Below are positions 4,809 to 51,611 of a DNA stretch of 64,000 nt, one piece after another; the stretch's first letter is position 1; each line of letters begins with the position of its first letter. The translations under genes and the position numbers were made by a program. This DNA comes from Eledone cirrhosa. Its lineage: Eukaryota. Below the pieces are notes generated by a model that saw nothing but the letters and a program-made list of their open reading frames with translations, ran no database searches and had not been told where the DNA came from. Location: the NCBI GenBank assembly GCA_964016885.1, contig OZ024747.1:48856001-48920000 (forward strand). Reading direction: 5' to 3'.

Positions 4809-4929
4809 AGGAAAATGTATAACCCCGACGGCAGAGCTCAAGCCATTTCGACGGCTATTTCTGGACTAAGTATTGAGTACTCTGGTGCGTTATGGTCCAT
4901 CTGGTTCCTTATCACACTTCCTTCGTTTT
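4809..4929 (+). mobile_element. Family A short element between (TA)n tracts
   Basis: Inverted arm joined directly to the tail TAAGTATTGAGTACTCTGGTGCGTTATGGTCC. Confidence 0.75.
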
Positions 4930-5224
4930 ATATATATATATATATATATATATATATATATATATATATATATATATATATATAATATATATATATATAT
5001 ATATATAATATATATATATATATATATATATATATATATATATATATATATATATATATATATATATATATATATATATATATATATATATATATATTTA
5101 CGGTAAATATTGATTCAATTCAAATCAAGCACTCGACGTATTTTTTCCACATAGGAAAAATGGAGTATATTTAGAATAAGAAAATGCGAAGTAGTTTCAG
5201 CTGTCAAAGTCCTTTATTGATAAT

Positions 5225-5292
5225 GCTGTGATACATATTTCAAAGACGACAGTGGCCACACGATTCCCAGTGCCATGACATCATCAGACAGC
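5225..5292 (-). ncRNA. Minimal type-I hammerhead motif
   Basis: Minus strand: GCTGT-CTGATGA-(degenerate stem II)-GAAA-TATGTA-T-C-ACAGC. Stem I is GCTGT/ACAGC and the triplet is AUC. Confidence 0.65.
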
Positions 5293-6027
5293 TTCTTATA
5301 TATTAAGGTTACGTTCCCTAGGCAATCCAAACTGAAACGACTAGGGAATGGACAAGGCGCGTGTTCCTGAATCCTTCGCCCGTTCCTTTGTGAGCCCCAA
5401 TTCACCTCCACAGGTTTGCGCAGAAGCAAACTCATCTCAAACCCCAAACTCAACGAAAACTAACCTAGACAGCCCCCCCCCCCTCCTACCAAACAATGAC
5501 CCCCATCCAGGGCGGTAATATGACACGGTTAAAGTTTACTGCTATTCGCCCTGCCAATGGAAGTTGACCGAAACCTAATGGTGGTGGCAGAGTATGAGTT
5601 TCAATAGGCCCCAATACTACCCCTAATTTATGCTTGGACAATAGAGTTGACCATCACCCGCTCAAGAGAATATAAACTTAATTCTAGATATTATGGTTTC
5701 ACAGTGGAAATTATGATTGAAAATTAGAAATTAAAAGTTTAAATCTTGATTGAAGTAAATAAAAATATAAATATATATATATATATAGGTTTGTTGGTTC
5801 ACCACTGGATAGAACTGGTCATTCTGTATGGTCAACCTCGATGTAATATTATGGAGAGCACTCGACGTAATGCAACTCACCCGTCTTCGTTTGTGTTGTT
5901 GGTGGTGCGAGTACGGAATACCTTTTAAGGAATTACACCAGTCCAGCCTCCTGTTATTTTATATATATATATATATATATATATATATATATATATATAT
6001 ATATATATATATATATATGTATATATA

Positions 6028-6295
6028 TTGTTATACTTTGGGAGGGTCATTTTGCCAATAAAAAACACACGCACCAGTTGCTTTCACTCCAATTTATTAT
6101 AAATTAAATTCATAAATTTAGGAATTCATAAATTTCCGGTTGGTTGGTTGGTTCCACAACCGGACGGTTGTTCATATATTGTCAAAGTTCTTTCGTCACA
6201 CATTCTGTGACCTCTTCAGTAACTGGGTATTCTTCTCTTTGTTTTGTGCCTCTCCTTTGTTCTGTCCTACGCCATCTTGTTTTTGTGTGTGTTGT
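6028..6295 (-). mobile_element. PLE pLTR fragment, family O, with HHR at 6181-6223
   Basis: Near-identical to 55496-55740 and 62300-62549. Minus strand: CTGAAGA-G-GTCACA/TGTGAC-GAAA-GAAC-T-T-TGAC. Confidence 0.75.
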
Positions 6296-6886
6296 GACAC
6301 AACATTGGTTGAAAGAATATTGGTTAAAAGATAAATTGATTGAAAACGTACTAGTAGATATTAAATGCATCGAATGACGTATCCGTAAAAAAATATTTAT
6401 AGAAAAATATTTGTAGAGTGAAGTTCGTAGAAAAACATTGAAATAAATGGAAACTTAATGACGACATTTTAAAAGAAAGTATTTAAAATAAGAACAAATT
6501 ATTTTTACATGAAATATCTTTTCATTTCATTTACAGGTTTTCTCAGAAAGAGAAATATACTGAAGAGAAATATACTGAAGAGAAATATACTGAAGAGAAA
6601 TATATTGAAGAGAAATATATTGAAATTTAATTTGGATATGTTTTGTATGTGTACTTCTGTGTGTGTATATATATATATGTGTGTGTGTGTATGTGTATGT
6701 GTGTATGTGTGTGTATATGTGTGTGTATGTGGGTGGGTGTGCGTGTATATATATATGTATATATATGTATATATATACACACGTATGTATATATGTGGGG
6801 ATGTGTGCGCGTATATATATATATAAGCATATATATATATGTATATATACGTATGTATGTATATATATGTATATATATATATATAT

Positions 6887-47609: not shown

Positions 47610-48675
47610 TTTATTTAAAACAAAACAAATTAAATAATTATCTTATAAAAAGCTCTGTAGCCTACATAGAGCACTCTCTTTTCCTTTACCTTTCCTACGG
47701 AAACACTTCATATATATATATATATATATATATATATATATATATATGTGTGTGTGTGTGTACATATATTACACACACATATATATATATATTTATTTGA
47801 CAACTACATACACACAGACACTAACACACATATGCACACACATACACACACACTCAGAATGGCAAGGGCCGTAACTCTATGCGTCAAAGCATGGCGTCCG
47901 CCCCTCTACCGATAACAAAAAGATATAATTGTTTCTACTTTAGGTACAAGGCCAGCAATTACCCAGTGCATTACTGGTACTTTATTTTATCGACCCCGTA
48001 AGGATGAAAGGCAAAGTCAACCTCGGCGGGATAGTATTTTAATCATGCAAATTGCTACAACTCAAAAAGCTCGAAGCTTAGTTGTTCTTTCACCTCCTTC
48101 CAATTGTTTAATCGCTGTCAACGGATCAGGCAGTCAACTGATCAAGATATCAATACATATATATATATGTATACACACACACACACACACACACATGTAT
48201 ATATATATATATATATACACACACACGTATATATATATGGACCTTCCAGTTTCATTTCCCATTACATACATGTCTGTGTATATTTTAGTTATTCAAAAAT
48301 TATTTTTAAGTGAACATGATGTTTTTAAATATTTTGAAGTGAATGTGACCCAACGGGTCACGGGTGGTCTAGTATACTACTAAAACTCTGTGATTGTTTG
48401 CTTCCTTGATTGTTCGTCTGTAATGTAATACAGACGAAAGGGCGCATAAAGGGGAAATACTTTGAAAAAAAGTTGACTCTGAAATGTGACTTTGACAATA
48501 TATCATCAACCTGCCGGTTATCGAACCAACCAACCAACCGGACATTTATAATAAATTGAAGTGAAAACCAACAGGTGCGTGTGATTTTTAATGGCAGCAT
48601 GACCCTCCCAAAGTATAACAATATATATATATATATATATGTGTGTGTATCTATATATCTATAGCTACTATATAT

Positions 48676-48875
48676 NNNNNNNNNNNNNNNNNNNNNNNNN
48701 NNNNNNNNNNNNNNNNNNNNNNNNNNNNNNNNNNNNNNNNNNNNNNNNNNNNNNNNNNNNNNNNNNNNNNNNNNNNNNNNNNNNNNNNNNNNNNNNNNNN
48801 NNNNNNNNNNNNNNNNNNNNNNNNNNNNNNNNNNNNNNNNNNNNNNNNNNNNNNNNNNNNNNNNNNNNNNNNNNN
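48676..48875. other. Assembly gap (200 N)
   Basis: Run of N. Confidence 1.
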
Positions 48876-50447
48876 ATTTTCCATCACACTAGTTTTATTA
48901 AGGCATTACACGAAATAAAAATTGTTGATAGAGAAATAATCTATTCATATACTCTTTTACACTTTACCTGTTCCAGCCATCCGGCTGAGGCCATGCTGGG
49001 GCACCGCCCTTGTCATATATAATGGGTTTTGATTTAGGCACAAGGCCAACAATTTTAGGGGAGTGGGGAAAGTCGATTAAATAGACCGGGGTGTATACCT
49101 AACCTCGGCGGGATTTGAATTCAGATCGTAAAGGGTCATAAATCTATGCTGTAAAAAGCATCGTGTCCTCTACCGATACTGCCAATCCACCAGCCTTAAT
49201 CTATGCATATATAATGCCAATCACTGAATCTATAACAAGATATTATGTATAATCCTAATCACCCCTAACATTAAATTAAACAAATATTTTTTAGAGAAAT
49301 AATTAGATAATTTATTCATATGTAATTGTTCCCAATCTTATTTTATCGTAAAATCCTTAAACAATATTCCAAAGTGTGTGGAACTCAGACATATTTTACG
49401 GACGCTCCCAATTTTAATGATACATTAAATAAAATAAAAATCGTTCCAGAGAAAAACTCTGTTCTACATATTAAAAAAAGACATATAATGAGTTTTTATT
49501 AAGTTTTATAAATAAAAAAAAAAGACCATTTATCTCACTGAGCCCATTTTGAGAAACCGTGTTGTAAAGAATTAGTTTCAACGAACTACTCAGAGTTTGA
49601 AATTAGAAAGTTCGATAATTTCCATGGACATCTATGTGCCCTTAATTCTTAATGGTGTCGTAGAGGTGTTATCATGACATATGGTTCTTGGGTATTCAAA
49701 CTTGACGATGCTTACCCTTCTTCAAGTCGGAATAAAGCCGTCTTCCTCCAAAGAAATACAGAAAGTAGGGAGAAAGGGAGCGAGTGTGATAGAAAAGTGA
49801 AAAAGAGAGAAAGGAATTGGCCCCAGTAATTAACTGGTACTTTATATATTGACTGCGAAAGGATATAAGCAAGTTTGACCTCGATGGGTTTTGTACTCAG
49901 AGCGCAGGTATCCTGAACAAATACCGCAAACCATTCTATCTGACATTCTAACGACCTCAACCAATTGGGACCTTCTATAATTTCTAAACTGAATGACCAC
50001 TAAATAATTATTTAGTCCAGTACTATACCCTCAAGTGTATATATACATATATATAGATATATATACATATATATATATATATTTGTGTGTGTGTGTAAGG
50101 TTTAACAAAATTTACCTTACGCCTCCAATAAGTTGTTACACGCACACACAGCCTCACCCCCCCCCCCCATATATATATATATATATATATATATATATAT
50201 TTATATAGTATGCAACAGAAAGTGAAGTAAACGTTCTTACGTAAATTAAGACCGGTGATGTATAAATCCCCTGGAGTTGATTAAAACACTTACCTGGAAA
50301 AAACGAAAAAATATTACAGCATTACAAAATGATTTATAGTTGAAGAATATTAGACATACAAAAATTATGTGTGCATATATATATATATATATAGTGAAAG
50401 AATGAAGAGTAACATGGTTGGCTGTACAACAAGGGGCTTTATTTCAG

Positions 50448-50558
50448 GTATTAACAATTGTTTCATTGATCAGGTGAGTCTAGAGGCCGCTAATCGCTCG
50501 AAGTTGCGTCACTCGATCTCTATTACATTATTTAGCTGTGATCAATTCCTCGGAATAC
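50448..50558 (-). ncRNA. Hammerhead variant (CCGAGGA core, long stem II loop)
   Basis: GTATT-CCGAGGA-ATTGATCA...TGATCAAT-GAAA-CAATTG-T-T-AATAC. Confidence 0.7.
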
Positions 50559-51611
50559 AAAAATAATTTATACATGGCAAGATATATAGAGAGAAATAGC
50601 GTATAATCAAAACAATAACATCAATAATAAAAAATATATGATAAATAGGTAAAGAAGTTACAGATGTAAAAAGTAAAAGATAAGAAAAAAGATACAGTAA
50701 AAAAGTAAGAGAATGGAAAAATAATAGAAATATAAAGAAATAAGGATAAGTGAGAGCATATAAGTACAGAATATGATAGTGGTGGTGGTGAGTAAGTGTG
50801 CGTATAAGGATTCTGTGGTGGGTTTAGTGCTAACATGGAAAGTCATATTCGAAACATACATAGATACGTGTAGAGAGTCTGAGGTAGTGACAGATAAAAG
50901 AAAAAGCAATAAATTAGAGATTAATTGGGAGATACTAGTATGAGACCCAAAGGCTAAGGGTCGATGGTGAAGGGAGGTTTGACAAATGTTTTGCTGATTG
51001 TCTTGTCTTAATGGGGTTGATGCGGTTTCAGGGAGAGAGGGTGAAAGAGATGTTAAGAGATTTATGATCTAGTGACCAGTCGGCCGCTTGACAGCTAATA
51101 GCGGTGTGATGGTATGTATTCCATACGTTAAAATCCAGGTGGTTCAGTTCTAATTTTGGGATTGCTGGCTCGAATCACTGTGGTTTAAAAAGCATAAGAA
51201 TTCCCGCGAATTCGGTATATTACTATGGAAACATCTTGTTGAGTCAAACAAAGCCGTACGTTGAAACTATCCACGACGCAGAGTACTCACAACCTCTAAC
51301 TGGATTACCTATAACGATAACTTGTTATCCCATATATATATATATTTATATATATACAAACAGACAGGCGCACATGCACTCACAAATAAACATGTACAAA
51401 AACACACACACACACACACACACACACACACACACACACACACACACACACACACACACACACACACACACACACACACACACACACACACACACACACA
51501 CACACACACACACACACACACGTATAGTATTTTAGTTATATATTATTTTGAGTGCTTGAAATCGTATCTACAACCCTTGTTTTCACGAGCAAAACAGAAG
51601 AACTGCATACA

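Follow-up and report, generated by a model that had tools for sequence, protein, structure and literature searches.

Twin bulged hairpins at the insertion ends of Hydra-clade Penelope-like elements in Eledone cirrhosa

Results

Hairpins and elements in the window

We analysed 64,000 nucleotides of Eledone cirrhosa DNA (GCA_964016885.1, contig OZ024747.1, positions 48,856,001 to 48,920,000 of the forward strand; hereafter the window), in which insertions tied to the Hydra clade of Penelope-like elements (PLEs) carry the heptamer GAGTRCT shortly before a terminal (TA)n repeat. A first-pass annotation had proposed the heptamer as a conserved cis-signal in the 3' tails of otherwise unrelated hammerhead ribozyme (HHR) elements. 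All 11 of its GAGTRCT sites and both variants were verified in position and strand, with the GAGTACC variant at 46962-46968(-), and the claimed motif-to-(TA)n distance of ~25-70 nt measured 24-69 nt over these sites. GAGT-RCT proved to form the 3' strand of hairpin 1, a bulged structure of the form RCUC-[helix]-loop-[helix']-U-N-GAGY-RCU. In the intact element, hairpin 1 is followed by a second hairpin (hairpin 2, GCUC/GAGC) lying just beyond the usual element end. The window contains the following features, with element families designated A (F0), F1, F2 and so on, and with ORF and EN standing for open reading frame and endonuclease.

419..451, minus strand: hairpin 1, family A
4868..4881, plus strand: 3' half of hairpin 1, family A, its 5' strand lost through truncation
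5128..5166, minus strand: hairpin 1, family F12 (likely a non-autonomous family; no ORF detected)
5238..5287, minus strand: hammerhead core, F12 copy (pattern match)
5857..5919, minus strand: hairpin 1, family F11 (1.9-2.1 kb tandem units without ORF match)
6891..7329, plus strand: complete F2 palindromic insertion, its inverted arm ending at the hairpin-1 site and its direct arm at the hairpin-2 site
7133..7169, plus strand: hammerhead core, F2 copy (pattern match)
7235..7277, plus strand: hairpin 1, family F2 (ACUC/GAGU, 6-bp upper helix, UC bulge; Hydra ORF linked to the family)
14052..14074, minus strand: hairpin 1, family F1, basal strand mutated here and intact in family copies (Hydra ORF in family)
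14138..14178, minus strand: hammerhead core, F1 copy (pattern match)
16250..16276, plus strand: hairpin 1, family A, variant GAGTATT
19262..19643, plus strand: complete F3 palindromic insertion with one hairpin-1 end and one hairpin-2 end
19455..19501, plus strand: hammerhead core, F3 copy (pattern match)
19560..19587, plus strand: hairpin 1, family F3 (UA bulge; Hydra EN upstream in locus L050)
21655..21681, plus strand: hairpin 1, family A, absent from the first-pass annotation
32347..32373, plus strand: hairpin 1, family A, likewise absent from it; without TA junction
43207..43263, plus strand: hairpin 1, family F9 (long loop with less certain pairing; ORF start and hairpin 2 in L275)
43644..43670, plus strand: hairpin 1, family A (intact tandem Hydra ORFs in L272)
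46749..46775, plus strand: hairpin 1, family A
46962..46983, minus strand: hairpin 1, family F4 (GAGTACC; Hydra ORF in family)
47027..47049, minus strand: minimal hammerhead core, F4 copy (pattern match)
51281..51287, plus strand: 3' strand of hairpin 1, family F5 (~100-nt loop in family copies, CA bulge; hairpin 2 and ORF in L262)
52329..52349, plus strand: lone hairpin 2 of F1 type (GCUC/GAGC, UU bulge), immediately 3' of a (TA)n run; this may mark an older element that was split at its own start site

Motif enrichment and family structure

Within the window, 12 of the 25 GAGTRCT matches lie 20-80 nt ahead of a (TA)n run, compared with 6.9% of background positions (binomial P = 3e-8, a value in which family A copies are non-independent and GAGTACT may be counted on both strands). 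Over 664 kb, comprising the window and 60 unselected 10-kb stretches, the motif occurred at 65 of 790 (TA)n flanks, about tenfold above the 6.5 expected; GAGTGCT was found at 33 such flanks and its reverse complement at 5, while flanks of CA, TG, GA or TC repeats carried the motif in 2 of 266 cases. Genome-wide, the pattern GTCGAGTGCT-N30-60-(TA)6 returned 15,902 overlapping matches and the reversed pattern 214. Enrichment over background, both positional and by strand, is therefore present.

Motif-masked blastn clustering grouped 113 sites into 24 clusters, 13 of them with at least two members, and one of these 13 is family A read backwards, which leaves 12 families. Spacers around the motif align in 3 of 55 family pairs (p < 0.02), one of the three being a subfamily pair. 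The elements had been called unrelated; they in fact belong to a single PLE clade, Hydra, but the part of the claim concerning the tails stands, and because the adjoining spacers do not align, the motif is an island of conservation among families related by descent.

Assignment to the Hydra clade

For 11 of the 13 sites in the first-pass annotation, the family could be tied to a Hydra-clade PLE ORF; the other two belong to F11 and F12, for which tblastn against the collected loci (tandem units in the case of F11) returned no ORF match. Tandem or full-length copies link family A, F1, F2, F4, F5, F7, F9 and F3 relatives to Hydra-type ORFs, and upstream of two motif-bearing copies the sequence runs into a decayed ORF whose CxCx5C linker is given by the available text of PMC8557442 as a mark of the clade. 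We found this linker in family A, the L154 family, F2 (L025) and F3 (L050), and three F1 and F2 copies that are truncated or altered lack it; CxCx4-6C was present in 56 of 69 frames from other hosts (described below). The single ORF encodes a reverse transcriptase (RT) with a C-terminal GIY-YIG-type EN (709-719-aa frames in L154 and L272), and proteins of different families are 40-53% identical. R-x-R-W-[RK] occurs in all five proteins from this genome and DKT in four of the five, compared with 0 of 6 Neptune/Poseidon-type outgroups, and across 117 proteins R36 is 100% and W37 98% conserved. By eye, the EN has no CCHH and carries CxxC and CxH close to the C-terminus, and 192 of 227 mapped 3' ends adjoin (TA)n. 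Pfam gave no match for protein P0001.

In a FastTree phylogeny, own and other-host proteins formed one branch apart from Neptune/Poseidon-type ORFs (SH-like support 100) with 68 of the 69 other-host frames inside; published Hydra proteins were compared by eye only, outside the tree. Neptune/Poseidon-type elements are also present in this genome. Neptune-type elements were considered as parents, as they made up most of the top genomic GIY-YIG matches, and were rejected as lacking the motif; the marks of Neptune, Poseidon and Naiad (Cx2-5CxxC linker, DKG, CCHH) were not found in motif-bearing elements. F11 and F12, with HHR, twin hairpins and TA ends, are likely non-autonomous partners and not full members of the clade.

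Family A also forms head-to-tail 3.54-kb arrays with intact 717-719-aa ORFs (L272). Separately, a tandem array of at least 24 kb (G000:C1:14235323-14259161, L204-L230) consists of ~58-bp units derived from family A hairpin 1 and its flank, and is a satellite born from a PLE tail.

Hammerhead ribozymes

The claim that an HHR lies upstream of the motif on the same strand of the same element was borne out at 5 of the 13 sites (7271, 19581, 14058-, 5134- and 46968-), but not as a blanket description. At 5863(-), the nearest core (6219) belongs to a different element past a TA run. Family A retains intact ORFs and both hairpins, and its canonical core is absent even from the 3,543-bp full-length unit; 'HHR elements' is therefore too broad a label. 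Putative canonical cores were matched by pattern in F1, F2, F3, F4, F11 and F12. Rfam gave no match on the window at the gathering threshold, and the best 150 of its 342 rows listed by E-value held no hammerhead, only microsatellite-driven miRNA rows, so the HHR calls are calls of the core pattern.

Several further HHR arrangements were seen. F5 (L262) apparently has an HHR with a stem II of ~80 nt, exceeding the pattern used, which also does not resolve the core of F9 (L275), and family A at L272 (G000:C1:91476001-91486000) holds only an HHR-like remnant. Cluster C1 (39 flanks), a (TA)n family that is abundant and carries an HHR, has no GAGTRCT at its junction and occurs in the window at 6040-6280 (-), 8797, 48621, 55663 and 62548. 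F4 forms short tandem units of ~190-200 bp (G000:C4:279229176-279229589 and L435) that resemble non-LTR retrozymes; L435 contains an HHR, hairpin 1 and the ORF start.

A second hairpin beyond the tail

The tails do share a structural context, which the first-pass annotation had raised as a question. In nearly every family ACTC lies upstream of GAGT, and the two flank a helix particular to each family together with a 3'-side bulge of 2 nt. A young intact family has two GCUC/GAGC hairpins ahead of its ATG with a (TA)n junction just 5' of each. The layout runs from the HHR over 60-100 nt to hairpin 1, over 37-81 nt to hairpin 2 and over 13-62 nt to the ATG. The presence of hairpin 2 past the tail end was predicted beforehand from one family, and yielded 376 matches versus 8 in the control, with 29 of 30 inspected loci showing hairpin 2 and a Hydra-type ATG. 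Family A, F7, F9, F12 and F3 relatives also carry it (454 versus 43 control), as do F11 (129 versus 0) and one copy of F5. F11 retains both hairpins though its tandem units give no ORF match. A coding role for the motif was rejected, as both hairpins lie 5' of the ATG, and splice-site and Pol II/III promoter consensus sequences were considered and dropped for want of a match.

Insertion ends track the hairpins

We mapped element ends over 1.064 Mb (the window and 100 unselected 10-kb stretches) using 13 natural reference copies, which were trimmed; two references were dropped. Among 227 element 3' ends, 97 fell 0-14 nt 5' of hairpin 2, 85 fell in the same interval of hairpin 1 and 10 fell elsewhere, the remainder comprising 34 without a TA run and 1 that reads through. 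Thus, 182 of the 192 (TA)n-ended 3' ends lie inside two 15-nt zones that make up 8-20% of each reference. Most are 6-9 nt 5' of a hairpin, with modal TA-run starts at -6 to -9, and the two end sites are ~76-164 nt apart in the mapping references. A UA-rich stretch precedes each hairpin, and the template usually matches (TA)n over 3-6 nt.

Head-to-head (palindromic) insertions revealed how the two sites are used. All 45 with both ends classed combined one hairpin-1 end with one hairpin-2 end, and none had two ends of the same kind, while independent site choice would yield about half mixed pairs; 16 further insertions had one unclassed end. The GAGTRCT motif marks the start of the inverted arm, a few nucleotides 5' of the motif hairpin, and it is the second, normally uncopied hairpin that sets the (TA)n junction lying 25-70 nt downstream. 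The proposed cis-signal is thus conserved, strand-specific and tied to insertion ends, but it does not act as a linear 7-mer at a distance of 25-70 nt from the junction.

These ends bear on two other explanations. Hairpins could direct RNA cleavage or 3'-end formation, such that the RT begins at an RNA 3' end by hairpin 2 and the inverted arm arises by ordinary twin priming. The sharpness of the ends is consistent with this, as are the existing use of self-cleaving RNA by these elements and the missing canonical core of family A. However, a single RNA has a single 3' end, yet both fixed sites were used in 45 of 45 palindromes. Twin priming by chance complementarity, as for L1, would not give a fixed second site beside the same structure, and we regard this explanation as very unlikely. 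We give an equally slender chance to a role in transcription or translation (an internal promoter or 5'-UTR autoregulation), or to mere shared ancestry, with the link to insertion ends being incidental. All families do fall in one clade and hairpin 2 does lie 13-62 nt ahead of the ATG, but the hairpin is kept in a family without an ORF and between spacers that do not align, and 182 of 192 ends follow the hairpins despite a spacer range of 37-81 nt.

Conservation in other hosts

A profile built from 106 homologues led to 99 loci from metagenome or metagenome-assembled genome (MAG) contigs, among them the best 80 of 450 matches; viral contigs gave no matches, nor did genome contigs searched with a single protein. 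Some of these Hydra PLEs lie within contigs filed under bacterial MAGs (L411-L430), most likely through host-animal contamination. A hairpin was found ahead of 50 of 60 Hydra ORF starts, with two hairpins ahead of 32, and 3' of the 3' HHR in 37 of 58 cases, compared with 4 of 532 ORF-internal control windows. A reverse-complement control was positive in 12 of 60; the self-complementarity of the basal stem keeps it from being a clean null. After clustering at 80% identity, 48 of 65 testable clusters carried the hairpin. In the Eledone genome, it was absent from 30 of 30 3' zones of other GIY-YIG elements and from 6 of 6 regions around their frame starts. Among published consensus sequences inspected by eye, it was seen in Hydra-2_Amil (coral) and in Hydra-2_Ajap and Hydra-1_Ajap (sea cucumber), the last with two copies ahead of the ATG.

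We gathered 93 distinct other-host hairpins without requiring upper pairing. The first bulge base was U in all 93, and of 92 bases immediately before the bulge, 91 were purines and 89 were paired. Watson-Crick pairing was in excess of shuffled expectation, in a control that ignores relatedness, at pair 1 (88/92, comprising 58 C-G and 30 U-A, versus 48.8), pair 2 (64/91 versus 24.7) and pair 3 (46/79 versus 20.0), and the excess appeared only with a 2-nt bulge and not with 0, 1 or 3 nt. The basal pair alternates between A-U and G-C among hairpins, and G-U outnumbers A-C by 19 to 8, leaning to the sense strand. TAT or ATA occurred at -10 to -3 in 68 of 84 other-host hairpins compared with 15 and 19 in two control windows, and all five other-host TA junctions, three of them from one family, were 8-11 nt 5' of the hairpin.

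The pairing data bear on whether the element's GIY-YIG nuclease instead reads the hairpins in DNA and cuts a long cDNA or donor intermediate at nearby TA steps, making both ends. In the available text of the sources, Craig 2021 (PMC8557442) ascribes the tail to EN-mediated resolution and Frangieh 2024 (PMC11167929) cites a tail requirement for recognition by the Penelope EN. Moreover, the end sites are TA-rich, as the target is, and the basal stem is palindromic. However, loop length spans 2 to ~100 nt, and covariation of the inner helix extends across a 2-nt bulge, which fits a folded single strand and not a duplex, and G-U outnumbers A-C on the sense strand. Tail ends of a Poseidon element were also mapped in vitro to RT start sites (PMC11167929, available text). 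We therefore consider nuclease cutting unlikely.

Other sequences in the window

An R2/NeSL-like non-LTR retrotransposon, labelled from its translation, occupies 22449-26192 (+), with frames of 960 and 286 aa split by one stop. Other LINE-like fragments and a mariner-like transposase, identified by eye, lie at 27059-30303 (-), 31662-32258 (+), 7443-8255 (-) and 11902-12312 (-), and satellites occupy 16879-18290, 56655-60096 and 63581-64000.

Discussion

The motif supplies the 3' strand of the upstream member of a pair of bulged hairpins in the pseudo-long terminal repeat (pLTR) of Hydra PLEs, and we consider it probable that the pair acts in the RNA as docking sites that fix where the RT starts. 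Hairpin 2 cannot act on new cDNA because it lies outside the copied part, and therefore acts on the template RNA or the donor DNA; variable loops and covariation would favour the RNA. In the proposed mechanism, the GIY-YIG nuclease of the element would cut both strands of a (TA)n repeat, and two RT subunits would sit one on each hairpin of the same tandem RNA. The two 3' ends would anneal to the UA-rich stretches, with copying running towards the RNA 5' end. The cDNA begun at hairpin 2 would become the direct arm, containing hairpin 1 and the spacer, that is, the 'tail', and the cDNA begun at hairpin 1 would become the inverted arm. Hairpin 2 would be left uncopied unless a tandem unit is copied.

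An AlphaFold2 model of the ORF protein (pLDDT 93.9) best matched TERT and other RTs. In the model, the near-invariant R-x-R-W-[RK] is predicted to sit in a long N-terminal helix, and residues 1-50 fall inside the aligned range only for TERT rows, where ranges are given by their end points. We take the part of TERT aligned to these residues to be its RNA-binding domain. More speculatively, the purine-U-N-GA / UC-pyrimidine bulge may be an arginine-sandwich-type site read by this helix. In a fuller version, which we advance tentatively and at somewhat below even likelihood, two tandem TAR-like hairpins, conserved across animal phyla, would hold an RT dimer through an N-terminal arginine helix resembling the telomerase RNA-binding domain, and one RNA would prime both strands of a (TA)n break at short, telomerase-like templates. 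If true, this would account for both the tail and the inverted repeats of PLEs.

Several observations weigh against the docking-site interpretation. No hairpin was seen in 10 of the 60 5' zones from other hosts, nor in 17 of the 65 testable clusters; some of these cases may be due to contig ends and decay. By eye, the version in Hydra-1_Crog is imperfect, and none is seen in Hydra-1_Amil or Hydra-1_Obim, whose consensus sequences end soon after the HHR. Hairpin 2 of F4 is a 4-bp GCAC/GUGC stem without a bulge despite a Hydra ORF and a sharp junction, and F5 hairpin 1, with its ~100-nt loop and CA bulge, was reassigned by hand prior to final end mapping. Single-sequence folding reproduced the proposed structure in ~3 of 8 window copies with no z-score below -1.8, and P exceeded 0.5 for the basal pair in 18 of the 27 references from this genome and 75 of the 93 hairpins from other hosts. 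The disregard of relatedness in the shuffle control belongs here too, as do the TA-rich end sites, which are also compatible with nuclease cutting.

The elements themselves, their (TA)n targeting, HHRs and tails are already known. The comparisons that follow refer to the available text of the cited papers. As in the Hydra clade of PMC8557442, our elements combine a single ~700-aa RT-EN ORF, RW[KR] and DKT, the CxCx5C linker, (TA)n targets, in several families a putative HHR in the pLTR, and tandem and inverted copies. The tail is 30-40 bp there versus ~76-164 nt between end sites here, and a tail hairpin or motif is unmentioned in that text. Searching its supplement for GAGTGCT or GAGTACT gave 22 matches and none within the available Hydra file, because the Hydra elements there use GAGC. 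In the Poseidon PLE of Anolis (PAc, PMC11167929), two internal RT starts likewise mark the limits of the tail, cleavage and extension affect both strands, the protein is predicted to dimerize and the HHR can be dispensed with. Together with these in vitro results, the docking of two RT subunits on the two hairpins of one RNA is the simplest model for the Hydra elements. Unlike ours, the PAc starts lie in an AC-rich stem-loop inside the ORF without target homology, and the binding motif is placed only within the first 172 nt. Here, two sequence-conserved 5'-UTR hairpins have starts that match (TA)n by 3-6 nt.

The bulge shares with the arginine sandwich of HIV-1 TAR and 7SK SL1 (Pham et al. 2018, PMC6189040) a secondary structure only, namely a paired purine and bulged U followed by G-C and A-U (A22, U23 and A27-U38 in TAR; A39, U40U41 and A43-U66 in 7SK). 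Here the loop is on the opposite side of the bulge and a conserved unpaired RCU follows.

A broader parallel concerns how templates are positioned. In telomerase RNA (template boundary element, CR4/5), hepadnaviral epsilon and the R2 3' UTR, a protein-bound helix sets the template position, and a short template-primer match is made at the repeat. By comparison, the element described here occurs twice on one RNA, sits 3' of the part that is copied and would serve double-strand insertion.

Neither the hairpin nor its duplication nor the one-of-each rule was found described in the literature searched, though subscription papers, Repbase entries, figures and bioRxiv supplements could mention them. 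The available text of bioRxiv 10.64898/2026.07.22.740005 does not mention a hairpin, tail or stem, and that of PMC7229834 does not describe a hairpin pair. The twin hairpin is thus well supported as a new structural cis-element of a known transposon clade; its mechanism we infer. The available text of PMC8557442 and PMC11167929 states as open the origin of the PLE tail and inverted repeats and the RNA feature read by this telomerase-related RT. A defined, covarying and duplicated hairpin with starts at fixed distances makes these questions testable with short RNAs and the intact 709-719-aa protein. The hairpin can also serve to annotate Hydra elements along with their non-autonomous partners, and is a possible minimal cargo tag for RT-based insertion into (TA)n.

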